The translations under genes and the position numbers were made by a program. The notes beneath the pieces are model-generated. The model worked only from the letters and a program-made list of their open reading frames with translations. It did not search any database and was not told where the DNA came from. DNA of 63,985 nt, the filler included, from Elsinoe ampelina (taxonomy: Eukaryota), in the NCBI GenBank assembly GCA_010093995.1. It is 4 parts of 3 records of this genome, joined end to end, with 100 filler letters (N's around TTAATTAATTAA, not from the genome) between each part and the next. Parts side by side here need not be neighbours in the genome. Positions count along the whole stretch, not along the records: positions 38,390 to 62,225 come from ML992514.1; 3 more parts are not named here. One strand, written 5' to 3'. This document shows, in pieces, positions 31,918-54,684 of this stretch. Every line of letters begins with the position of its first letter. Within the stretch, counting starts at the first letter, position 1.

Positions 31918-32017
31918 NNNNNNNNNNNNNNNNNNNNNNNNNNNNNNNNNNNNNNNNNNNNTTAATTAATTAANNNNNNNNNNNNNNNNNNNNNNNNNNN
32001 NNNNNNNNNNNNNNNNN
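31918..32017. other. 100-bp assembly spacer containing the TTAATTAATTAA linker (also 38290-38389 and 62226-62325); plain N gaps at 39509-39938 and 40868-41262
   Basis: Identical N44-TTAATTAATTAA-N44 structure three times; a six-frame-stop contig joiner. Confidence 0.95.
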
Positions 32018-35000
32018 CCTCGTTCTTAGCTTAGCTTAGACTACTAGTATAGACTATATTTAGACAGTTCGTAATATTTTAACTACCCTTACTATAGTAT
32101 AGTACGCTACGAGGTTAATAAGTAACTCTTACTCTAAGTTACTATTAGTATCTTCAATTACTAGTAAGCTAGGAAAGCTTACTATTAACGACATATCTAC
32201 TACTAGTTTAACCTCGAGCGAACATAGAAGGTCTCTTAGTATAGGGGAAGAACAGAGTAAGCCTAAGTTAGAGATAAAACCCTTCTATAGAGACTACGCC
32301 TACTTAAGGCGCTTCCTTGTTTAACTTAAAGCCTTCTTCGCTCTAGAGAGAGATAAGTACGCTAACGACGTAGCAAAGGTTCTCTATGCTAGGATATACC
32401 TAAAAGGCGCCGCCTTCGGGTAGTTTAAGCCTTATATAAGTAGCTACCTAGACGGATAACTAAGCCTAGATACAAAGGCTATCTTTAAGAGCTTTAACAT
32501 TTTTTAGGCAAAGATTAAGTAAGTCTTTAACGTATCTAACGAGGAGCGCGTCGCTACGATAAAGATCTAACAACTATAACAACGTAGGTCTATAGCCTAG
32601 TACTATTCCTAGTTCTAATAACTCGTAATACACCTAGACTAGAATAATAGTACTAAATATTTAGTATTCTACTAAGGACTAAGCGACTTAGTTAAAGACT
32701 AAATAATACTCGAGCTGCCTAATAGCCTCTAAGAACTAGTAGATACTACAATTGCTATTAATAACTAACTCTATAAACGACATATAGAACGTTATAGAGA
32801 ATATAAGATAAATACTAGATATACGTGTTTCTCCTAAAACTATAGAGACTCTATAGAACTTAATACTATACGCGAGAGCTACTCCTTATAGGTATAAGGC
32901 TATAGCTATAGAGGAAAGTCCCTTAGTAGAAAAGAGAGAGAGAAGTATAGATAAGGCAACCTATGTTTTAAGTATAAAAGACCTAAGTATCGAGCTAGGG
33001 ACTACCGATAAGGGGCGCTAGCTAATAGATTATATATAATAGTTGCTAGACTAGTAGAAAAAAAGGCTAATACTACTATAGAAGACCTAATAACCTTTAG
33101 CGTAGGTAAGGAAATATAGAAGAAGTCTACGACGACTTAAGAGGTAATAGAATTCTCTCTAGATGTTATACTTAATATCTCTATAACTAATAGTAAATAA
33201 CAAAGCTAACACGTAACACTATTATAGATAGTATATTATAATAACTCTTATTATATTCACTTATTAGACAAGTAGGGATCTAGTTAGTTTCTATATAAGC
33301 TATCTAGGCGTAGGACTAACGAAATAGCTAGACTAGGAACCTAACCTAGAGAAGCTTTCTATAATTAGTAGTAACATTAACTAACCTTAGAAGGTAGTTA
33401 GCGACAATTATTAATATACAATTATTGAAATAAAGTATTAGAACGCAAGTACTATACGATAATATAGTAGCTTTACCTTTAGCCCTTATAGCGAACTATA
33501 AGGAAAGGTATATTATATATTACTCTAGAAATGTATAAATCTAAATTATAAATAGTACTATACTATCTACTTATACGATATACTTAGAGAAGAAGCTATT
33601 AGTCTTAAATACACTATAGACTTCTTAGTAATTAAAATAGGTAGTACTATTCCCTATAGCTAAGTATAAGAATATACTTAGTGTAGCCTTACTAACTATA
33701 ACTATACTAGGGGCAGTAGCGACGAAGAGAAATATAACAAAGAATATACTAAAAGACTATAATATAATAACACGGATAAAGACTTATTCGATAATAACGA
33801 TAACGATATACTACTACTAGGCGAACGACTTAAGGCATACCTTATAGAGATATAGAGAAACTATATAATAATATATACCTACTACTAGAATAGAATATAA
33901 CAACATAAATCTACTTAACTCGCGTTTATCTTTAATATAAATACCTAGCTATACCTAGAGAGAATAGTTATACTAATACGGGTGTATACTACTACTTAGT
34001 ATAACTAGTAGAGAATTATTGGACTTTATAGCTACTAAGGGACTTAGGCGCTAGAAGTTTACCTCGCTATATTAAATAGCGACAAAACACGACTTACCTA
34101 GTAGATATAGTACTAATAATAGATACGTACGGGAAGGGATTAACTACTTATCTAAGGCGCTACAATAACAAAAAACTAGCTAGTTATCGCCTAAGGAGGT
34201 AAGATAATAACACTAGCTAAAGCCTTAATATAATAAAGATCTATATATTAAATTACTTTATACTAGAAATCTAGATATAAGGAAATAAAGTAAGAGTAAT
34301 AATAGATTTAGGAGCTAACTATAGCTACGTCTCTATAACAATTGCTAATTAGCTTAAACCTTATTAACATTAGAAGGAGTTACCTTATCTACTTACTATA
34401 GCGAATAGAACCTCTATAGAGAAGAATAGGAAAGTTACTTAGGAACTATAGAACATTACAATTAAAATCGAAACACATATAGAAAAACGATTAATCGATA
34501 TAGTAGATATATAGTACAATATAGTACTTAGTATAGACTAGCTCTAATAATACAATCTAGACGTAGACTAGATTAAAGAAACACTTAAATTCCCTAAGTA
34601 TAATTATAAGAAGCAAGGAGCATAATTAGCTCTATAGATACTAACTACAAGGACAGTATAGGTATAACTAATAGTTAGAGCTATTACTAGCGTAAGTAAC
34701 TAAGCACTTCCGCCGGAATATAAAGACTTTAAGGATTTATTTAAAGAAAGGAAAGGTATTATAGCCTTACTCTAACATAAACTATAGAATTACGAAATAC
34801 CTTTTAAAGAAGGTAAATCCCTAATATACTATTAAGGTCTTATACTACTATTAAAATAAGAGGAGAATGTTCTTAAGAACTATATTAATAAGCACTTACT
34901 TAAAGGATTTATACAACTATTAAAATTACCTATTACGTACGAAGTGCTTTTTATACTAAAAAAGAATAAGATATTACAAATATATATTAATTATTAGAAA

Positions 35001-38000
35001 CTTAATATACTTACTAGGAAGAATCGCTATCCTCTACTAAGGATTAACAAACTTTAAAACTAACTTCTTAGAGCTAAATAGTTTACCGTAATTAACATTA
35101 GGGACGCCTATTATTAAGTATAAATAAAGGAGAGTAAGGAGTAGAAAACAGCTTTTAGGACATAATAGAGTCTATATAAGTACCTCGTTATACTCTTTAG
35201 GTTAACTAACGCTCCTATAACCTTCTAAGAGTTAATTAATAATACTCTATAAGAATACCTTAATAACTTTATCTTAGTATATTTAGATAATATTATTATC
35301 TTCTTAAAGATGTATAATAAATATATAGGACATGTTTATAAAGTGCTATAGAAACTAAAAGAGAAAGACCTACTAGTAAAACTCTCTAAGTGTAAGTTCT
35401 ATAAGTATAAGATATAATTTCTAAGCTATATTATATCTACTAATAGTATTAGATCTAATCTAAAGAAGATTAAGTTAGTAAATAACTAGCTAGAACCTAT
35501 AATAGTTAAGGAGGTTTAAGCGCTACTAGAGTTCTTTAACTACTACTATAAGTTTATTAAGAGATTCTCTAAAGTAGCTATACTAATATTTAACCTTACG
35601 AAAAAGAAAACTAGCTTTATCTTTAACGAAAAATATAAGTAGGCCTTTAAGGAGCTAAAGCTTAGACTTATAATAGTACCTATCCTAGTACTCTTCGACC
35701 TAGACTAATAGGCACTACTAGAAACGAATGCCTCGGACTTTGCAATAGAAGCGTATCTAGCGTAGAAGGACGCGGAAGAATAATGCTACTTAATTATATA
35801 CTACTTACGGAAAATAACTAGACCTAAACTTAACTATAATATATATAATAAGGAGTTACTTGTAATTATAGAAGTATTCCGTAAGTAGAGAGTATATCTA
35901 GAAGAAATAACCTTACCTATATAAGTCTATACTAACTATAAGAACCTATTATATTAGATAATAACTAAGGTTCTTAATAGGCGATAGGTTTAATAGTTAG
36001 AAACACTTATAAGCTACAACTTTTAGATCTACTATATTAAGGAATTAGAGAATAGTAGAGTAGACGCTCTTAGCCGACGACTAGACTACTTAAAGAATAT
36101 AACAATAATAGAGGCCTCTATACTAAAGTAGTAAGACAGCGCTCTAGTCTATAAGCACCCGAAGGTAGAGTAGTTATATAGCCTTACCTAGGAGCTTACG
36201 TAAGAATAGAAGAAAGAAGTTATTTAAATACACTATAATAACCTAATAGTAGAATATAGTAGGATCGATAAGACTATTAAACTTATTACATAAAACTACC
36301 TATAGAAAGGACTCTAAAATAATATTAAGACATATATTACTATATGTAATATATGCTATAAGTCTAAGCACTTATAACATAAGCTATATAGCCTATTATA
36401 ACTCTTGCCACTACTAGACAAACTATAGTAATCGGTTATAATAGACTTTATAGGACCTCTACTACTATTAGAAGAATCTCTTATAGGTGTAAAGTATAGT
36501 AGCATTCTAGTTCTAGTAGATAGATTTACAAAGTATTACTACTTTATACTATATAAGATAATAGTAACTACTAAGGATATAGCCTTTACCTTCCTCCGAA
36601 TAATTGTTTTATAACATAGAGTACTAAGAGACCTAATAACTAATAGAGATAAGCTATTTACATTACAATTCTAGTAATTATTTATAGATCTACTAGGAGT
36701 TAAATATAAGCTATTAATCTCCTTTTATCTATAAATAGATAGACAAACTAAGTAGGCAAATTAAGTACTAGAGTAGTACCTATAATGCTACCTAAACTAT
36801 AAGTAAGACTTATAGGTAATACTATTACCGCTTATAGAGCTTGCTATTAATAATAGAAAGTTAGTAAATAGAATTTTACTATTTTACGTAAACTATAGAA
36901 TATACCTAGATCTATACTATAACATACTTAGAATTAAGCTAATATCTAAGGATGCTAATATACTAGTAGCTAATATTAAGAAACTATATAACTAGCTATA
37001 CTACGATATAGTATTTATATTATAAAGGATAGTAGAGTTTACTAACTAGAAGAGAATTATAGGACTAATTCTAAAGGAGGAGAAGAAGGTTTATCTCCTT
37101 AGTAAGAACATTAAGACTAAAAGACTAAGTAAGAAACTTAACTACACTAAACTAGGACCTTTTAAAATCCTAGAAAAGAAAAATAAGAACGTATATAAAC
37201 TAGAACTACTAAGATATATAAGGATCTATCTAGTCTTCTATATATTACTACTAGAGAGAGTACTATAGAACGCTATACTTAGACCTATCGAACTAGATAA
37301 AGAAACATAGAAGCTATAGTATAAGATCGAAAGGATTTTACATTATAAACTTATAAAAGAAAAACGCTACTATCTTATTTACTAGAAGGGACATTAGTAT
37401 AGTAAAGCAATATAGGAACTAGAGAAGTACCTTACCTTATAAGCAATTCTAGATTACTAGATCGAGAACCTATTCTAAGTAAACCGACTAGACGGACCTA
37501 GTACTTCTAATACTAAATAAAAATAAGAATACCTAAGGAAGATTACTTAGCTAATAGGAGCACCTTAATTATTGCTAAATAGAGAACCCTAGTCGGAGTT
37601 AGGCATAAATAATTACTAGTCCTATAGTAGGATAGGATCTACCGACGATAGTATTTCCTTCTACTCTAGGACTTAAATACGAGTCTCCTCTAAAGAGATT
37701 ACTTTCTCTACCTTATTCTTTAACTTTTGTATTTCTTTACGTAGGTAAAGCTTATTACCTATAGCTCTTTAATAAGCCTCTTTTGCCTTTTTATAAGCTT
37801 CTTTAGCTCTCCTTCTAGTAGCCTTAGCTATAACTAATTCCTTTTATAAACGAATATACTTAGACTAGAGACACTACTATTCTAATTTTGTTACTTAAAT
37901 ATTATAGCTCGAGTAGTTACTTATAATATACTAGCTATAGATACTCGACTAAATATAGACCTTATAGTCTAGCCTCTTCGATTTATAATAAGAACAAGCC

Positions 38001-38289
38001 TATAGTATATTAGTTCCGAATAGCTTAATAAACTCTAAGAGATTCTTTCGCGTAGATATACTAGATTTACTATGCCTTTAACAACTAGGAGGCATATTTA
38101 GTATATAGCGTATAAAGATAAGGAAGAATACTTACTCGTTAGAATAACTTAATTAAAGGAGAAGAGTAATGTTACAAACTAGTAGGATAGCTAAAGCGTA
38201 GAGACGTTAGGACTAATTAAACTACTAAGGTTATTACGTGACCTAGCTCGACATTTACCTAGTTCTCTATCTTCTCTAGTAGCTCTACC
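32018..38289 (+). mobile_element. RIP-mutated Ty3/gypsy chromovirus internal region: gag, protease, RT, RNase H, integrase, chromodomain
   Basis: De-RIP motifs: CFKCxxPGHRARDC knuckle about 32964; IDSGA protease about 34300; MPFGLTNAP about 35190; YLDDI about 35279; ETDASDFAIGA 35721; FHPQTDGQTE about 36723; chromodomain YEIERIL..YLIHWKG..ATWEPE 37320-37425. LTRs not seen (gaps). Confidence 0.93.
37500..38095 (-). pseudogene. Extra antisense ORF of the gypsy element: Cys6 cluster plus coiled coil, inactivated by RIP
   Basis: ATG 38095 MPPS..; one frame held for more than 160 codons, interrupted only by TAA/TAG stops that RIP can produce; 3' end approximate. Confidence 0.65.
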
Positions 38290-38389
38290 NNNNNNNNNNN
38301 NNNNNNNNNNNNNNNNNNNNNNNNNNNNNNNNNTTAATTAATTAANNNNNNNNNNNNNNNNNNNNNNNNNNNNNNNNNNNNNNNNNNNN

Positions 38390-41300
38390 AGATCTTTTTC
38401 TTTTACTAGTTAGAGGTTATATGTTAAATAGTGTAATAAGGAAGTTAATATCCTTATTCTATATATATATTAGTAGTTAATTAACATTAACTATAGAATT
38501 AAAGGTTAAATGTAGTTTACTAATAACTTTAGGTAGTAGTATTATAAGGTCTTTACCTTTATAATTAGTAACATTAAGTTACTTCCCCTGTTTATTAACA
38601 GGTTAAGGATCTAGTTTAGGATATTAGTGTTACTTCTTCTATTCTTTAATAGGGGTAGATAATTGTTATTTATATCTAGGGATAGAAGAGTAGTTAGATG
38701 TTAGTTGTTTAACTTAAGGTTATTTAGCCTAAGTAGTTTATAGATTCTTATAACTAAAGAGTAGTTAGTTATAGCTATAGCCTTAATTATAATTACTACT
38801 AAATATCTACTCTCTCTAAAGCTATAAAGCCTTAGGTTGTTATACCTATAGGATATATAGCTGTTTAATAACTTATATTACTTAGTCTTTATAGACTATA
38901 TTCTTATTAAATATTATATAGAGTGATATAATAATCTTTCCCTTCTAGGCTTACTAAGTATAATACTAATAGAGTATCTAGATAAGGTAATTAGTTATTA
39001 AGTTGTTCTATATACTAATATACTAACTAAGTAGTGCTCTAGCTTAGAATTTATATAATTTAGAAATATATTAGTTATAGACATAGGCTCTATAGCTAAA
39101 GTGTCTAATATAAGTTAATAAGACTAGCCTATTATTATTAAGAAGATTCTTTCTTAGCTCTTATATAGGGATCTTCTTAGTTTTAGTGTAGGTAATTCTA
39201 TTACTAATATAGATTATAAACTCTATAACTATATACTAGAGTTTAAGAGGTGCTCTATAATTAATAAAGATATACCTTGTTCTAAGAATAACTACTTTAT
39301 TAGTAGCCTTAGATTTACTATTTTAGTATTAAGTATTAGGTGTAGAGATATCCTATCTCTATCCTTTAAGATAAATAGCTATTACTAGTTTATAGTTCTT
39401 AAATTTACTCCCTTTATTAGAGATAAAGATAAATAAAAGCTTATTATAGGCTATTTTATTCCTTATATAGATAAGTTTAATTACTACTAGTATATTACTC
39501 TTAAGGAANNNNNNNNNNNNNNNNNNNNNNNNNNNNNNNNNNNNNNNNNNNNNNNNNNNNNNNNNNNNNNNNNNNNNNNNNNNNNNNNNNNNNNNNNNNN
39601 NNNNNNNNNNNNNNNNNNNNNNNNNNNNNNNNNNNNNNNNNNNNNNNNNNNNNNNNNNNNNNNNNNNNNNNNNNNNNNNNNNNNNNNNNNNNNNNNNNNN
39701 NNNNNNNNNNNNNNNNNNNNNNNNNNNNNNNNNNNNNNNNNNNNNNNNNNNNNNNNNNNNNNNNNNNNNNNNNNNNNNNNNNNNNNNNNNNNNNNNNNNN
39801 NNNNNNNNNNNNNNNNNNNNNNNNNNNNNNNNNNNNNNNNNNNNNNNNNNNNNNNNNNNNNNNNNNNNNNNNNNNNNNNNNNNNNNNNNNNNNNNNNNNN
39901 NNNNNNNNNNNNNNNNNNNNNNNNNNNNNNNNNNNNNNTTAGCTTTTAAGTAGTTATAATAGCTAGATTTACTCTTATAGCCTATAGCTTCTATAGTTTT
40001 AGCCTTATAGGTAATTCCTTGTAGTTCTAAGGCTTATAGACTTTAAAGTTCTTAAGCTATTTAACTCTTTTAAAGTGTTTAATAAGGCTAACTTCCTTTC
40101 TATCCTTTATTAAGAATTTACTAACTATAAAGATACTAAGTTCCTCTTTATTCTAAAGATTAAATATAAGAGTATTTAGTAATAATAGTAAGTATATATA
40201 ATTATAAAGCTTAATAATTAACTTCTTGCCTTTGCTATTAGTTAAGGTAAGCCTAACTATACTAACTTCTATATTAAGTAGCTTCTTTATACTAATAGCT
40301 TATTTAAATTTAAGAATACCTTTATATACCTTAATTATTAAGAACTATAACCTGTCTTTAATAAAGTGCCTTAATACACTAGAGTTATAGATTACTCTAT
40401 TCTTGCTATAGGTTAAGAATAATAATGTAGATACTACTACTACTCTATAGACTAGTATAATAATATTAATATTAGTATTAGAGCGTTTATCTAATTTACC
40501 TACCTTAGTAGGTTCTCTAGATTCTTTAATAGCTGCTTAACCTCTAACTTTCTTAGTCTTTAACTTGTTACCTTTGCCTTTAGCCTTTATATCTTTATTA
40601 TTTAACCTGTCTTTATTATCCCTTTTACTTTAACTCTTTAGTGCTTTCTTAGGGTACTACTTAAAGTAATCTATATTAGAGTAGATATAATAAGTATACT
40701 AAGTATATTAATCCTTAATATAACTAGCTACTCTATAAATAGAGTTTAGATTAGTTCTTCTATTATATAGAGGCTTCTATATTCTAAGAGAGCCTATTAT
40801 CTCTTTAAGACTCTTCTTATAGTTAAGGCTAGATCTCTAGCTCCTTAACTATTTAGTAGTCTCTATTNNNNNNNNNNNNNNNNNNNNNNNNNNNNNNNNN
40901 NNNNNNNNNNNNNNNNNNNNNNNNNNNNNNNNNNNNNNNNNNNNNNNNNNNNNNNNNNNNNNNNNNNNNNNNNNNNNNNNNNNNNNNNNNNNNNNNNNNN
41001 NNNNNNNNNNNNNNNNNNNNNNNNNNNNNNNNNNNNNNNNNNNNNNNNNNNNNNNNNNNNNNNNNNNNNNNNNNNNNNNNNNNNNNNNNNNNNNNNNNNN
41101 NNNNNNNNNNNNNNNNNNNNNNNNNNNNNNNNNNNNNNNNNNNNNNNNNNNNNNNNNNNNNNNNNNNNNNNNNNNNNNNNNNNNNNNNNNNNNNNNNNNN
41201 NNNNNNNNNNNNNNNNNNNNNNNNNNNNNNNNNNNNNNNNNNNNNNNNNNNNNNNNNNNNNNACCTTATAGATTGCCTTAGTGCCTTTACTAGTATCTAG

Positions 41301-41692
41301 GGCTAGTTCTTTAGGCTTTATAACTGCTAGTATCTAGTTAATGTTATAAATTGCATATCTAAGTATATCCTTTTTAAGGAGGGCTACCTTAAGGGTTAAT
41401 CTCTAAGTATTATAGTTGCTCTCTCTCTTAAGAATTTAAGTCTTAAGCATTTTTACTAATCTAGACATAATAATAGTAATTAGCTAAAGGCCTATTAATT
41501 TGATTAATGTAATTAGCTTGTTTAAGCCGTTTAAACTATTTAATTAAAGGGTTAATACGGGCTACTATAAGTGTTTATCTTAATGTAGCTAGTCTAGAAT
41601 TTAGTATAGGCGGCTTAGTAATCCTTTTAATAATAACACGCTTAATTTGCTATAGCTTTAAGTGCTTTTGTAGAAGCGCCGGGCTTATAACC
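38390..41692 (-). mobile_element. RIP-mutated Ty1/copia retrotransposon (family B): PBS, gag and integrase region, gapped
   Basis: PBS ggttataagccc on the minus strand at 41692-41681; minus-strand integrase-like reading near 39280-39000 (xAPLKLW..IYxxNR, then YGAYVY..ARALLG). Confidence 0.75.
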
Positions 41693-47766: not shown

Positions 47767-49666
47767 TCAATCATCAGGGTACTCATCCCTCACGTTACTC
47801 ACAAACCTCCTCCCGTCCGCATCCCACCGCTTGAAGTACCTCCCCGCCATACCCAACAGCTTCTCCCCGGGCTCTGTGTAAATCGGCTCGATGTTCTCTT
47901 CAGCCACGTACCTACTAGACCGATCCTCGCCGCTATAAATCATTAGCACCATCCCCACAGATGACCAGGTACCCAACTCACAGAATATTATAAAACGCCT
48001 GCGCCCTCCCATTCTCCAGATCATCAACCCTCATACTCGCGATCCAATTCTCATGGGCCCTGCACTGCCCATCCCACGCCCTGATCACCCCCACATACCC
48101 ATACCGCTTATGCTGAAACATCTGCCCAATCTTAAACTTGACCCCGGCCACCATGCCCTCCCGCAACTCTCCCTGCGACCCCTGACCATCGACCTGCACC
48201 CTCCTCATCACCGGCCTCCGATTCAGATCCTCGGCCTTCATCTCCGCCAACGCCAGCATCAACTCCCTCCCTCTCTGCGACCGCCCGAACAGCGGACCGA
48301 GGTACTTCCTCACCAACTCCAGATCCTCGGGGAAATGCTCCCGGAGCATCGTGGCCAGTTGCCCTGCATTCGGATGGTCCAGCACGGGCAAGAACCCCGG
48401 CCCACCACCTCCCGGTATCGGGGAGGGTACTTCTTCCACCAACGCCATGGCCCATAGATACGCGTAGAAAGCGTGGTGGTTCCCGATGAGGTCGTCGCGG
48501 TTGGGCGGGATGTTGTGCCATTCTTCGTAGGAGCGCATGATGTTGCGGCAGGTGCGGAGGACCATGTCGGCGGGTGAGGCGGGGGAGAGGTAGGTGGTGT
48601 GGAGGCGGGGGGGCACGCCGGAGTGGGAGAGTTGGGAGGCGAGGACGGGGTAGGGGATTATACCGCCGGATTGGTGGTTGGAGTGGGACCAGGGGGAGAT
48701 GTAGAAGCGGTGGGACAAGGGGAGGTCCGGTGGGGTGGTGGAGTTGGTGGTCGGGGTGGGGGGCAGGATGATGGCGAAGATGTGCCCAGGGAAGTTGATG
48801 CAGTGCGCGGTGAGGCCGAGGCGGGTGGCGACGGCGCAGAAGATGACGGTGGATTGGAGGGGGAGGGAGCATTTGGAGCGTTCGCGGAGGGTGAAGGAGA
48901 GGAAGTTGTGTTTCATGGCGTGGTAGGCGGTTTCTGTAGGGTCGAGGCCTGCGATGCCGTGTTCTCGCAGCCAGTCGGCGATGACGAGTGCTCGTAGCTC
49001 GGGGTCTTGTTCGAGGATGTTGGGATGATCTGCTTTGATCTCTTCTGCGGCTTTGTCCAAGGCTGAGCTGATTTCTGAGATGTTGCCCCATCTGCCACCG
49101 ATGATGAATAGGTCAAAGGCCGCGATGCTTCGCTCTAGACTTGGATTTGGATCTTGATTCATACGAGACCATGTTTCGAGTGCTGCTGCTCGGTTGATGA
49201 GACCTATCGCTGCTTCGGCGTAGTATCGTCTAGCCAGGACATCCTCGGCGGAATCTGGACAGCGCAGGTTATCTACAAGCATCTCTCGAGCCTCATAGCC
49301 AGACTCTGCAATCTTCTGGATCTTGAGATAACGTTCATGTTGTGTCGTCAATGCTGATTCGAATAATCGACTATTGTGCTGGTCTCTGGTGATTCTGTCG
49401 CAAAAGAGCCTCTTCCAAGGGGCGTTGGGCTGTCTTTGAACCACAGCAGGGTCAGTGTCATCGGTGAAATGCCAGTAATTAAAGACTGTGTCGCAAAAAT
49501 ATCTCCATAATAAAGGTTGATCCAATAGCTTGGTCATTCTTCTGCTTGTTGATCCTAGGTGGATAGCATCGCGTGGCGACAGGTAGTAAAAGATGGCTTG
49601 GAGTAGCTCATCAGGTAATCGGAGGATCGAGTCGCCAGCCATCATATCTATCGTCCGACCTCCCAT
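47767..49666 (-). CDS. F-box protein with transglutaminase-like core and YccV/HspQ domain (FBXO21-like)
   Basis: ILRLPDELLQAIFYYL F-box; SLPLQSTVIFCAVATRLGL..FPGH; FKIGQMFQHKRYGYVGVIRAWD; last exon RYVAEENI..GRYFKRWD after an intron near 47981-47933. Confidence 0.88.
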
Positions 49667-50032: not shown

Positions 50033-52333
50033 CTATTTACTCCACCACATACCATCACTCCGGTCTCTCCGCCCCTTGAAACCGCTCATCATTCGCTTTC
50101 CATTTGACGCTCTCCCGTTGAGTCCTCGATGCCCGTTCAGAGCATGACCATTGACAGTACCGTTGGTCCTCTTCGAACCATGCCCACCGATGTCGCCGGT
50201 AAGCGACCTCCATAGCTCGCTGACGGGTACCCTCTTTGCTGGTAGCATACTGTACTGGAGACTGTAAAGACTCTTTCGTGATATAGGAGGGATGAATTGC
50301 CCAGAGAGCAGGCAGAGCAGCACACGAGGCGAAGCGTAGTGCTTTCGAATGCGGTCTGCGAGTTGAGAGTATTGCGAGAAGGTTAGTGTGAGCGGAAGAG
50401 AAATTGACTGAATTTGTCAGATATGCTTCCAGAGATGCTGGAGCGTCATCATACCTTCAATCTTATTACTGCTGTATGTGCGGACTTTTCTTTGTCCGCG
50501 TCGTTCCGTACTTCGTTGCCTTTGGGTATATCTTGTAATTCAAAACGAATGCCACCTGTGGACGTCAGAACTGATCAACTCGCTGGCAGAAATCAACAAA
50601 CCTGGTAAACGCCTGGAGTCTTTGACTCTCAACATCAAAGCAAAAAGAGGAAAATGATTCAAACAAGCCAGCCAGACATCTAGCCCTGCTTTTAATACAA
50701 TTATACCCATTCGGGCTCCGGCAAAGGTCGTGTAAAATACACCCACGGTGGGTAGAAGAAATGTAAGTAACGTGAAAAGGATCGTCCCTATCAAAAGCTG
50801 GTCGAGATCGTAATCGCATGAATCGATTCTGTTGCGAAGTATGTTTCTCTTCTTTCCGCGGAAGAGGTGGAATAGGGAGACGATGATCGTCAATTGCCAG
50901 TTGTATATCCTGGCAGAGGCAATATAGAAAGCGTAGATATGGACAGTGAGGATTGAGACCAGGTCGGAAAAGAGAGAAATGGGCATGCTGGCTCCACCAA
51001 AGCTTGAGAAGCCAATAAGTCGGATAATGTGAGGGAGGATCGGTTGGAGTGTCTGCATACATCCAGCCCAGTAGTCGATGACCCATAGGAAGAGGTCACC
51101 CAGGAAAGCAGCAAGCTCGTTGTTGAGTTTCAGACCAGCTGGCCAATCCATCAGCCATGCAATCATCTGCTGTAAACCGTCGATGAACCAGGCATCTACA
51201 ATATGGTTTACTTGGGCGGCGACCAGATCAGCATTGTCGATAATGTACGAGCCGAGAGCAATTCCAATGATCACATCGTTGGCTACCAACCACAGACTGT
51301 TGTAGAATCGAATGTATTCTGGGTGATTGTTGGTGATGCTGCCCCAATTGCTTCTCCTCCGTCTAAGGGTCAAGTATTGTGTTGGCCAGTAGCAGAATTG
51401 CTGGAGACGGATATCGACCTGCTGAGCAGTAGCCGAAAGGTCTTTCAGTGCAGCAAATCGACCTGACAAAAGCTTCCATTCGAGTATCTGCAAGAGGACC
51501 TCGCCACCAGCTCTGTATAAGACGATGCAGAGGATGAAGAGTTGCGACATGATCGGCCAAACGTAGCTCCAGAAGATCCGCTTACTCTCGAGAATGACAT
51601 GATCCCAGGCATTTGTGGCAGTCTCCACGACCCTCTCACTGACACTGAGGGTCCTCTTCGACCTGACGCCGACCAATCCGATGTTCTTCTGCATCAATCG
51701 ATCAAGCTCTGAAGAGCAATTGATTTGATTGATGATGCGTTTCAGGGCCAGCTCTTTCTGTGTTCGTGGATGTTTGGTAACCGTATGCAATTTGAGCTTG
51801 TCCAGCAGTACCTTCTTCTTTTGTCTGTCGGCCTCTATTGCGACATCCATGCCATCGTATATGAGACCTTGCTCTTCAATCTTGTCGCGCACCTCCCCAA
51901 GTGTCAGAGCGATCGGACTGAGGGAAAGGTACTGCATTCGTTGTGGGTCTGGCCGATCAAAGACCACAATCTGTAGAGTGATGTTGGCGCTGCTTGGACA
52001 CCAGATATGTGGTGCTTTCCCTCTCCGTCCAGACCATGTGGTAAGGTTGTAGTGATCAAAGACGTCCCGCTGCTTGCCGTTGAATGTGCCCAGGACTTCA
52101 AAATCCAGATTCCCACAGCGGTCCAGGATCTGATTCATGGGATGTGGTGTTCCCCGGAAGAGCGTCCCTACCTGCAGGGCATTTTGTACACTCCGTACCT
52201 CAACATCTTGCAGCAGCGAAACCACAATAATGTCCAGCTCCGAGTTCCTCCATCCGACCAAGACTCCCGGTCGGTTTATATTTGACAAGTCTGAAGGCCA
52301 GAAGACGCGCATCAAGTCATGTTGTGTTGTCAT
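50033..52333 (-). CDS. GPI1: GPI-GlcNAc transferase component Gpi1 (PIG-Q), 3 exons
   Basis: MRVFWP, QQVDIRLQQFCYWP, YIRFYNSLWLVAND, WPAGLKLNNEL, LFRGKKRNILRNRIDSCDYDLDQLLIGTILFT; introns about 50601-50556 and 50454-50408. Confidence 0.95.
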
Positions 52334-52346
52334 AATAGCCACATGG

Positions 52347-52619
52347 CTAGAATGATCCCCGTCTCTTCAATTGCTCACGCGCTGATATGCCACCAGGTTC
52401 TGGGTGAAGTTCGATCTCAATCTCTGCGATCTTCGTCGCGGGAATGACCAGGATGAAGAAGAATAGCGACAGGACGACGAAGCCTTTCGCAGCGCGTGTC
52501 CAGACGCTGTGGTCCCAGGCGAAGATTGCGAGCTCGTAGAGACGAGTGACGAGATCCCAGCGAGCAGTGATGTATCCAGCTACGAAGATGCTGAGAGTCA
52601 GGACCGAGAAGGGGTGCAT
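52347..52619 (-). CDS. 90-aa small membrane protein immediately upstream of GPI1
   Basis: Intronless ATG-to-TAG ORF with C-ending codon bias like neighbouring genes; two hydrophobic segments (FSVLTLSIFVAGYITA, GFVVLSLFFFILVIP). Confidence 0.7.
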   Translation of the reverse strand: MHPFSVLTLSIFVAGYITARWDLVTRLYELAIFAWDHSVWTRAAKGFVVLSLFFFILVIPATKIAEIEIELHPEPGGISAREQLKRRGSF

Positions 52620-52648
52620 GAATGTCGGTCAGGTCAAACACGCTGCCG

Positions 52649-52684
52649 TCTCGTCGCGTATCTCGTCGCGTATCTAGTCGCGTA
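52649..52684. promoter_or_regulatory. Three tandem 12-mers tct(c/a)gtcgcgta in the divergent promoter region
   Basis: Repeat seen directly; each unit holds a CGCG core. Regulatory role is inferred only. Confidence 0.4.
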
Positions 52685-53017
52685 GAGTCAGTAGTTCAGG
52701 TTCGACGTGCAGTATCGCACGCTGTCAAGCGATTGAGTCCGAATACGTCGCAGCTGAATTGTGAATCTTGAATCGCCATGCAGCTTCTCAGGAGCCGCAA
52801 ATTTGCCAAGACTTGTAATGCCCGGGAAAGCCGTGATGCCGAAGAGCTAAAAAGTGGGGGCAGATCTCCTCGATGCTGCTCGTTCTGGGGAAATTTTGGG
52901 AGATCTTGGTATTCTTTGACTCTAGCACGCCATCTCAAAACGGGCAAAAATAGATGAGACGACACCATCTGCTTTTCAATATGCCATGGGCATTCTTTTC
53001 CATGCATCCGACATGCC

Positions 53018-54684
53018 ATGCGGCTACTACGCGAGCTTTTGAAGCTCAGACAGCAGTATATCGACCAGGGCGATGCGTATTCGGCAAACACCAGATCTCT
53101 CCCCGCACGACTCCTTGACGTATTGATCCGGACATGGCATCTAGGATTCTCAGCCTTTGGAGGGCCTGCTGTTCAGTTTTTGACCTTTCGCCGCAAATTC
53201 GTGGATGGCCTTGACAATGGCCCGCCTTGGCTCGATGCACAAACGGTGACACAAGGAGAACAAGCCAAATAATCTGCATGCTGATTCGTCTCACAGTTCC
53301 AAGAACTGCTGTCGCTCTGCCAATCAACTCCTGGCCCTGCTAGCACCAAGCTTCTTGTATGCTTAGCATGGCTTCACGCCGGGCCTTTACCAGCGCTGCT
53401 GGTCTTCTGCCTATGGAGGTCAGTAGACACTGAATTCACTGCATCTTATTGCCTATTGATGAGTAAAGTCTCCCAGCTGCACTGGGAATGCTTGCTTTGG
53501 GTCTCGGTATCCAACAAGTCGGCGACGTCCTGCCAGCTATTGCCTATGCGTTTCTGACAGGTCTGAATGCGGCTATTGTCGGAATCATTGCTCTAGCTGC
53601 GACACAACTCTCAAACAAATCCATCAAAGGTCAGCTCGACCGAATTTTGATTGTCTTTGGCGGATGTGCTGGCTTGCTCTACAGCTCTCTGTGGTACTTC
53701 CCGGTCATCATTGTCTCTGGGGGTATTATTACTATTACTTGGACCCATGGCCTCCTTCCGATCATAAACCGCCTGCGTGCGAAATGGGAGGTACGCAAAG
53801 CGGTACGAGAGGAGATGCGGAAGCAGTTGCATGATGATGATGAAGAAGAGGCCGAAACTAATCAACGAGGCTCCCGGACACGAGAAATCGAGATGCAGAA
53901 TGCACTGCCTACGCAATCGCCCGCAGAAGCGGCAGCGCCACAGCCACCGATACCGGCAGCAGAACAGCAGCCATCACTAGACCCGAGGGCAGACACGAAG
54001 ACATACCGAGTACCCATCCCAGCTGGTCTTTTTCTCATTGCCGTCTTTCTAGCTCTGGTCATCGTGCTACTAGTCACATCAAGAATAATGGAGAATCCAC
54101 AACGGCCTCATGAATTCGTGGCGAACATGGTACTCGCGGGCAGCATTATCTTCGGAGGGGGTCCTGTGCTCATTCCGCTGATGCGAGACTATGTTGTCGA
54201 ACCAGGATGGGTCTCACCTCGAGACTTTCTCATCGGGCTTGCTATTGTTCAGACCTTTCCAGGACCCAATTTCGCTTTTGCAGTATATTTGGGCGTTCTT
54301 TCTATGCTCGGTACTGGCTATTCTTCCGTTCTCGGTGCATTTCTAGGCTTCATGGGCATATTCGCACCAGGCATCATCGTCGCTGTTGGATTTATGAGCA
54401 TTTGGAATGTTCTCAGGAGACGGCCGGTTGTCATGAGTCTATTACGCGGTGTCAACTGTACGGCAATTGGGCTCATCTTCACGGCTGTCTATAGAATCTG
54501 GCAGATCGGATATCTCTCGACAGATTTCCCGGAAGGACGACCGCTTTCACTGGAACCCTGGTGGGTTGTAGTCACGGTTGTTGCATATGCTACTAGTAGA
54601 TGGCTGAAGATGCCTACGGCGGGTGCAATTGCCTTGGGCGGAGTACTCGGACTATGCTGGTACGGCGTGATCGGCTCACGATGA
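53018..54684 (+). CDS. Chromate ion transporter (CHR family, bidomain), 3 exons
   Basis: LGFSAFGGP, CQSTPGPASTK, IIFGGGPVLIPL, QTFPGPNF; introns near 53246-53296 and 53419-53468. Confidence 0.9.

Follow-up and report, generated by a model that had tools for sequence, protein, structure and literature searches.

In the window analysed here, a 63,985-nucleotide stretch of joined parts of the Elsinoe ampelina genome, a small open reading frame (ORF) of 90 codons lies on the minus strand 13 nt upstream of GPI1, the gene for the PIG-Q homologue Gpi1. We consider it probable that the two ORFs form a dicistronic unit: one mRNA would carry both, GPI1 would be reached by leaky scanning, and the first product may be a microprotein accessory to the glycosylphosphatidylinositol-N-acetylglucosamine transferase (GPI-GnT). 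Dicistronic eukaryotic mRNAs and leaky scanning are known in kind. What is new is a dicistronic GPI1 locus with translational adaptations over a whole subphylum, an uncharacterised conserved microprotein, and very short upstream ORFs (mini-uORFs) at fixed distances from the start codons.

In the mechanism that we propose, one promoter upstream of position 52619 would give a spliced mRNA, single in E. ampelina, in which the small ORF is separated from GPI1 by a very short spacer. A fraction of the ribosomes would initiate at the first start codon (AUG1), which appears to be held weak by a T at -3 and a C at +4. The remaining ribosomes would scan through a nearly AUG-free ORF and initiate at the GPI1 start codon (AUG2), where position -3 is usually a purine. 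The split between the two products is probably adjusted by very short uORFs; in the window there is only the mini-ORF encoding MWLL, and many relatives have an AUG at -8 from AUG2, a mini-uORF ahead of AUG1, or both. The microprotein, produced at a constant ratio to Gpi1, would then either be an accessory subunit of GPI-GnT or regulate it.

The small ORF and GPI1 as a conserved pair

The elements of the locus in the window are as follows.

52347..52619 (-): small ORF, 90 aa plus TAG stop (ORF listing, homologues, alignment)
52616..52622 (-): start context of the small ORF, TTC ATG C, weak with T at -3 and C at +4, and kept across the family
52334..52346 (-): spacer CCATGTGGCTATT, 13 nt from the small-ORF stop to the GPI1 ATG (sequence)
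52330..52344 (-): mini-ORF ATG TGG CTA TTA TGA (MWLL*), inside the spacer, its TGA overlapping the GPI1 ATG as ATGA
50033..52333 (-): coding region of GPI1, the PIG-Q homologue (Pfam, tblastn, splice sites)
52620..52779 (-): ATG-free stretch of 160 nt ahead of AUG1, presumed leader or core promoter, the nearest upstream ATG being at 52779

This layout had already been proposed in the sequence-only reading, and the 90-aa ORF, the 13-nt gap, the MWLL* mini-ORF, the ATGA overlap and GPI1 are all present according to the sequence, the ORF listing and Pfam. The small ORF starts with the ATG at 52619 and ends with GGA TCA TTC TAG, its stop occupying 52349..52347 on the minus strand. The ATG of the mini-ORF is positioned 11 nt ahead of the GPI1 ATG and has a G at -3, and the GPI1 start itself reads ATT ATG A, with A at -3. 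The identity of the downstream ORF is clear: it matches the Pfam Gpi1 family PF05024 with 375 bits (cut-off 22.2; E 2.6e-112) over model positions 1-265 of 265, and it is 98% identical to a 735-aa Gpi1 family protein named Elsinoe batatas. From tblastn and splice sites, exon 1 of GPI1 spans 52333..50602 and is followed by a 46-nt intron (50601..50556) and by a second intron from 50454; the final codon reaches 50036 and the stop 50033. The uninterrupted ORF has 597 codons (52333..50540), after which the gene continues through introns.

On comparative evidence, the small ORF is a true gene encoding a conserved protein. A word-indexed search returned 1066 homologues. The best 120 of these are 90-119 aa long (mostly 92), are 68-91% identical over 99-100% of the query, and have named sources in Dothideomycetes, Eurotiomycetes, Leotiomycetes and Sordariomycetes; this conservation removes one way in which the sequence-only reading could have failed, namely a small ORF without relatives. 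A divergent member of 94 aa is found in Peziza echinospora. Related small ORFs contain zero, one or two phase-0 introns at fixed sites after codons 40 and 71, and removal of these introns restores a 92-aa protein.

The most invariant part of the protein is its C-terminal tail, ISAREQLRRRGSF, which runs up to the stop. In an alignment of 27 sequences, S79-L84 and R86-F90 are invariant and position 85 is K or R (ISAREQL[RK]RRGSF); the block GYITARWDLVTRLYELAIFAWDHGV is nearly invariant as well. The codons of the tail nevertheless vary freely. In the codon alignment of 49 models, the normalised entropy is 0.8-1.0 for most tail codons and 0.6-0.8 at S and the final F. Since synonymous codons vary under an invariant tail, selection acts on the peptide and not on an RNA element, and the small ORF is translated.

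A tail of this kind could also belong to a cis-acting conserved-peptide uORF, whose nascent C-terminus would arrest ribosomes on the stop codon, 13 nt short of the GPI1 AUG, thereby gating GPI1 translation. The 13 last residues indeed form the most invariant block and end exactly at the stop, and in many lineages this stop and the GPI1 AUG are no farther apart than one ribosome footprint. In addition, TAG is the stop codon in 38 of 52 sequences (TGA in 9, TAA in 5), counts that stand without a control for the usual stop usage in these fungi. However, conservation of the first 45 residues and of the hydrophobic helices equals that of the tail, as is usual in folded membrane proteins, and 92 codons is long for known regulatory uORFs. 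We find a purely cis-acting peptide very improbable; a stalling role and a role as free protein are, for that matter, not mutually exclusive.

The pairing of the small ORF with GPI1, which the dicistronic reading requires, was followed in metagenomes. The scan gave 228 confirmed relatives, from which 80 loci were kept (L001-L080). In 74 of the 80, the GPI1 N-terminus comes next, in the same orientation, and the remaining six contigs end within 83 nt of the small ORF; hence GPI1 follows in 74 of 74 informative loci. Gene models were obtained by a two-intron search. None was found for L044, L055, L076, L077 and L078, which were dropped from the counts, and the models of L030, L035, L036 (88 aa), L058 (90 aa) and L062/L063 (97 aa) are imperfect. 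With a model and a GPI1 ATG set for 70 loci plus the window, 52 non-identical sequences were available, window included; for the codon table, models outside 90-93 aa were removed, leaving the 49 mentioned above.

The spacer between the two ORFs is short in this whole set: 6-63 nt, with a median of 20 nt and at most 32 nt in 51 of the 52 sequences. Its sequence differs among relatives, and its length modulo 3 is 0, 1 or 2 in 20, 19 and 13 sequences, respectively, so that the two ORFs share no fixed frame. Short spacing spans the Peziza-like member, Dothideomycetes and Eurotiomycetes. Among named genomes, the small-protein and Gpi1 entries lie on contigs of equal size in ten cases, and they have consecutive locus tags in Neodothiora populina. 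The Gpi1 N-terminus, M....LMR[IV]FWP, is conserved in all 52 sequences, with the start there rather than farther upstream. Overall, the comparison supports a unit too tight to fit a terminator and a second promoter between the ORFs, in a layout far beyond chance, and it supports retention of a putative dicistronic unit throughout Pezizomycotina, in every sequence examined. The lack of room had been argued from the window; the 13-nt gap and the tight spacing in every informative locus bear it out.

Spliced RNA across the junction and fused gene models

Two of the metagenomic contigs are RNA-derived. Contig L039 (2669 nt over its whole length) is 99.4-100% identical to the genomic loci L049 and L050, from which it differs by the absence of three introns: a single one in the small ORF, the other two in GPI1. 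The absent segments have GT..AG ends and branch-point-like CTGAC/CTAAC motifs. Along L039, a 177-nt leader is followed by the small ORF, a 20-nt spacer, an intact GPI1 ORF of 711 aa and 60 nt more. The second contig, L044, matches L027, L028 and L029 minus four introns and covers both ORFs. Both contigs retain the small-ORF stop and the spacer. As all introns of the genomic match are absent, mature spliced RNA appears to cover the junction unbroken. These assembled contigs thus support a mature dicistronic mRNA in two relatives. The single transcript of the sequence-only reading therefore gains a footing in these relatives, while for E. ampelina itself such an mRNA is extrapolated from them. 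In L044, positions 1-114 do not match genomic L027 and resemble the beginning of a chloroplast psbA mRNA from a plant, which suggests a chimeric assembly.

An alternative is that the locus gives two overlapping monocistronic mRNAs, with GPI1 transcription beginning within the small ORF or one of its introns, and a small-ORF mRNA that ends inside GPI1, the tight spacing being a matter of genome compaction. Excerpts from a Zymoseptoria tritici Iso-Seq preprint (10.1101/2023.04.26.537486) lend this some weight, as short-read assembly can merge overlapping transcripts and polycistronic reads are rare there compared with single-gene reads. The RNA-derived contigs, moreover, end without a poly(A) tail. 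On the other hand, spliced L039 and L044 are continuous over the junction, and without coupling it is difficult to account for a spacer of at most 32 nt in nearly all of such diverse sequences. The weak AUG1, the stronger AUG2 and the avoidance of Met and ATG, described below, are likewise hard to explain. We therefore judge separate overlapping mRNAs decidedly improbable and retain one dicistronic mRNA as the working reading.

Public annotation raises a different question, that of a single fused Gpi1 protein. Among the 120 public Gpi1 homologues listed (P0271-P0390), 28 start with small-ORF sequence, 62 start at M....LMR[IV]FWP and 9 at the second conserved Met. A fusion could arise by splicing, stop-codon readthrough or frameshifting, and in the window a GTGAGC at 52378 together with a CAG ending at 52291 would join the two frames. 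Yet no two of the 28 fused models share a junction; the junctions vary by species and skip different residues (e.g. P0139, P0152), and the tail is conserved as protein up to its final F and stop. Together with the stop and spacer kept in the RNA contigs, this indicates that the fused models are prediction artefacts. Furthermore, since no frame is conserved between the ORFs, fusion by readthrough or frameshifting is excluded, and Gpi1 has its own conserved N-terminus, at which most of the listed models begin. A fused protein is almost certainly wrong, and splicing of the two frames into one, which the sequence-only reading had kept in view, does not occur at this locus as far as the conserved C-terminus and stop, the RNA contigs and the variable spacer frame tell. 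The corresponding 88-nt intron of the window (GTGAGC at 52378 to CAG at 52291) was considered and rejected: its donor is formed by the Arg-Glu codons within the invariant tail, both this tail and the stop are conserved, and the RNA contigs keep the stop and the spacer.

The fused models also account for the naming of many 92-aa small proteins as 'PIG-Q' in public entries. Hence the small protein is not unrecognised in the sense first claimed, as many genomes annotate it, often under this wrong name. The claim holds for the literature searched: no description of the dicistronic unit or of the small protein was found in open-licence PMC papers and bioRxiv full text, although closed supplements may list it. 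The inconsistent annotation has a practical cost, as it corrupts Gpi1 alignments and orthology tables.

Start contexts, AUG depletion and short upstream ORFs

The two start codons of the unit have opposite contexts. At AUG1, position -3 is T in 46, C in 5 and G in 1 of the 52 sequences (pyrimidine in 51), and position +4 is C in all 52. At AUG2, a purine occupies -3 in 46 of 52. Between them, start codons are scarce. Only 2 internal Met are found in 10,725 residues of 118 homologues, and internal ATGs in any frame number 0.85 per small ORF, as compared with 1.34 after synonymous resampling and 3.34 after shuffling. Individual codons point the same way. His37, which precedes Gly38, is encoded by CAC in 40 of 40 cases, against CAT in 29 of 47 at His72; CAT before Gly would create an ATG in strong context, which the CAC avoids. 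Similarly, Arg20 before Trp21 has an A-ending codon in 4 of 49 models, compared with 23 of 49 at Arg90. Codon choices thus avoid good-context ATGs in the small ORF. A common internal ATG at nt 82 (33 of 52 sequences) always has T at -3, and the ORF that it opens stops before the GPI1 ATG in 31 of the 33.

In the window, no ATG is present between AUG1 and the mini-ORF ATG, a run of 275 nt. Taken by itself this run is only mildly unusual, as 31 of 919 inter-ATG intervals on the minus strand of the window match or exceed it in length, and many of these fall in an AT-rich block. This block, at 32000-41500, has a GC content of 4-36% per 500 nt and includes an ATG-free run of 2271 nt (41356..39084, minus strand). 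It looks like a degenerate repeat or a region of the repeat-induced point mutation type, and it inflates the background of long ATG-free intervals.

The gap between the small ORF and GPI1 frequently contains an ATG of its own. It is located exactly 8 nt before the GPI1 ATG in 28 of the 52 sequences, within at least eleven different octamers, and at -5, -11 (the window) or -28 in three others; the remaining 21 have no gap ATG. Among the gap ATGs inspected, position -3 is always a purine. The 31 ORFs opened in this way, mostly of 3-9 codons, have 3 codons in 11 cases, 4-5 in 5, 8-11 in 11, and are longer in 4. The mini-ORF is thus, in these comparisons, a recurrent and lineage-dependent feature and not the core of the dicistronic unit. 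The -8 AUG may damp or tune Gpi1 synthesis.

Such gap ATGs are what a mechanism of termination-reinitiation could use. Here, ribosomes finishing the 90-codon ORF or the mini-ORF would restart at the GPI1 AUG, with ATGA as the coupling site, as the sequence-only reading had proposed. The spacer is very short in every lineage, and in 22 of the 31 sequences with a gap ATG the TGA of the mini-ORF overlaps an in-frame Gpi1 AUG, as ATGA at Met1 in 12 and as TGATG at the conserved Met8/9 in 10. According to excerpts from a review (PMC5972666), reinitiation after ORFs of 3-9 codons is generally efficient; the invariant Trp-Asp dipeptides of the small protein also necessarily encode UGGGA, the core of motif 1 of the termination upstream ribosome-binding site (TURBS) treated in the same source. 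In the window, the dipeptides W21-D22 (52557-52552) and W35-D36 (52515-52510) carry this core of the calicivirus motif about 170-230 nt before the GPI1 AUG, probably by coincidence.

Several observations nevertheless make reinitiation improbable in our view, and the comparison gives it no specific support. The same excerpts state that reinitiation after long ORFs is very rare and that the viral cases reviewed depend on tethering by a TURBS at the 3' end of ORF1 and on a restart codon near the stop (PMC5972666); the UGGGA sites are far upstream of such a position. In the fungi, synonymous sites of the last 13 small-ORF codons are nearly unconstrained, and the sequence ahead of the stop contains no conserved RNA element. 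The spacer varies in length, frame and sequence, with no fixed distance from stop to restart. The stop that overlaps the GPI1 ATG is that of the mini-ORF only, and 21 of 52 sequences lack a mini-ORF. Moreover, an ATG at -8 combined with an A at +4 yields the ATGA overlap automatically. For the overlap at Met8, selection on the Leu codon that makes TGATG is not demonstrated, because this NTG codon is also common in sequences without a mini-ORF (12 of 21, as compared with 9 of 12). Finally, reinitiation does not need a conserved weak context at AUG1. Leaky scanning probably fits the start contexts and the avoidance of Met and ATG better than termination-reinitiation does.

Short uORFs are also found ahead of AUG1. 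An ATG within 40 nt upstream of AUG1 is present in 40 of the 52 sequences and absent in 12; in the window there is none within 60 nt. The commonest position is -25 (15 sequences), with -24 or -26 in 4 more, and these ATGs have a G at -3; most of them open a uORF of 3-4 codons that stops 9-13 nt before AUG1. Others are at -16 (8 sequences) or at -12 (3 sequences), where a 3-codon uORF abuts AUG1. Through delayed reinitiation, these uORFs may carry some of the ribosomes beyond AUG1. There are precedents for the use of both of two neighbouring AUGs (PMC6294492).

Some observations weigh against one mRNA read by leaky scanning. The leaders of the RNA-derived contigs contain upstream AUGs, so that AUG1 is not always the first AUG, and L039 and L044 are short-read assemblies, which can join overlapping transcripts. 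ATG depletion is incomplete, as the nt-82 ATG illustrates. The AUG at -8, in strong context and present in more than half of the sequences, would intercept scanning ribosomes; therefore simple leaky scanning would not be the whole story. Lastly, what ties the small protein to GPI-GnT is linkage only, the protein having neither a Pfam family nor a PDB relative.

Around the unit, the presumed leader or core promoter contains a 12-nt unit, GATACGCGACGA, twice in tandem (52651-52674, minus strand), 32-55 nt upstream of the small-ORF ATG. The upstream neighbour is a divergent ORF of the chromate-transporter family (53488-54684, plus strand), which shares with the small ORF a promoter region of at most about 760 nt. 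Downstream of GPI1 lies an ORF (47978-49666, minus strand) with F-box, transglutaminase-like and YccV-like domains.

The small protein and comparison with known systems

The small protein is predicted to be a membrane microprotein with two hydrophobic helices. Kyte-Doolittle analysis places hydrophobic segments at about residues 3-19 and 43-65, within windows of 3-19 and 42-67, and an AlphaFold (AF2) model shows helices at 3-36 and 39-71 and a short one at 80-86 (mean predicted local distance difference test score 83; predicted template modelling score 0.39). The protein has a conserved C-terminal tail of 30 residues; its invariant part could be a binding motif, a phosphorylation motif or a nascent-chain stalling signal. 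Similarity searches led back to the family itself. The protein of the window matched no Pfam family at E up to 0.1, and none of 27 family members matched anything GPI-related in Pfam at E up to 10, with the restriction that HMMER filters drop weak matches. Searches of PDB sequences with Gpi1 and with the small-protein family profile gave no match, nor did they reveal a solved structure of GPI-GnT. Protein-atlas searches with the small protein returned its own family (automatically named 'pig-Q') or nothing, and a profile search of 1.84 billion representatives gave 270 matches at E up to 1e-3, the best 150 of which are the same family or intron read-through calls only.

The linkage to GPI1 across the subphylum, the likeness in size and helices to known small subunits and a human bicistronic precedent suggest that the small protein could be a partner of Gpi1 in GPI-GnT, a proposal to which we give somewhat less than even chances. 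A more specific version, which we hold to be rather unlikely, is that the 92-aa protein is a new Pezizomycotina subunit of the enzyme, either the counterpart of Eri1/PIG-Y or an extra one, whose dose would be tied to that of Gpi1 through translation from one mRNA with a weak AUG1, a first cistron free of AUGs and mini-uORFs at fixed distances.

Fungi depend on GPI anchoring for their cell walls, and antifungal agents such as the Gwt1 inhibitors already act on later steps of this pathway, according to excerpts from PMC11294708. A fungus-specific microprotein tied to GPI1 would, if confirmed, be a candidate component or regulator of the first committed step of GPI synthesis. The unit would also be among the few natural fungal dicistronic mRNAs conserved over a subphylum. 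With its clear sequence signatures, the locus could serve as a model for the division of ribosomes between two cistrons and possibly as a tool for two-gene expression.

The small protein shares with known small GPI-GnT subunits, namely Eri1/PIG-Y, Gpi19/PIG-P and DPM2/Yil102c-A (PMC3184424, PMC11294708, in part), a length below 100 aa (90 aa in the window) and two hydrophobic helices. Like Eri1/PIG-Y it has a genetic tie to the enzyme, here through linkage to the Gpi1 gene. It differs in its conserved 30-residue tail and in that no member of the 27 matches a Pfam family of such subunits (E up to 10). Pfam does hold a PIG-Y model.

The human PYURF(PreY)-PIGY locus resembles the GPI1 locus in that a gene for a GPI-GnT subunit is carried with a small protein on a two-ORF mRNA. 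In the human case, PIG-Y, the subunit of GPI-GnT, is encoded by the small second ORF, and the first ORF gives a product that has no relation to GPI. In the fungi, by contrast, Gpi1 is the large downstream ORF and the upstream ORF encodes a small membrane protein, with no sequence relationship between the two systems; the fungal unit is also conserved over a whole subphylum. PYURF-PIGY is described as a previously characterised bicistronic transcript in excerpts from PMC13303939.

Bicistronic loci of green algae offer a closer parallel in translation. In Chlamydomonas and Auxenochlorella, a weak ORF1 context and AUG depletion have been tied to leaky scanning by in vivo mutagenesis, and the loci described in excerpts from this work have a weak ORF1 start, few AUGs before ORF2, short spacers (one of 14 bp) and no common frame; they include small membrane proteins such as TOM22 and OST4 (PMC11291117). 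The evidence at the fungal locus is comparative sequence instead of mutagenesis, and the locus adds mini-uORFs at -8 from AUG2 and at about -25, -16 or -12 from AUG1.

These last elements recall the delayed reinitiation of GCN4. Many relatives have a uORF of 3-4 codons with G at -3 that ends 0-13 nt before AUG1; following the principle given in excerpts from PMC5972666, ribosomes that have translated it would be expected to pass AUG1 and to regain competence some 300 nt later, at GPI1. In contrast to GCN4, the uORF is absent from the window and from 12 of the 52 sequences. We know of no link between the GPI1 unit and eIF2 control.

Among fungi, polycistronic transcripts from a long-read study of Agaricomycetes and glpks3-glnrps7 of Glarea lozoyensis provide precedents for multi-ORF mRNAs (PMC4503453, PMC4471562). 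As far as excerpts from these papers describe them, those cases are lineage-specific or low-abundance read-through, whereas the GPI1 unit is found in every Pezizomycotina sequence examined and carries what appear to be translational adaptations.

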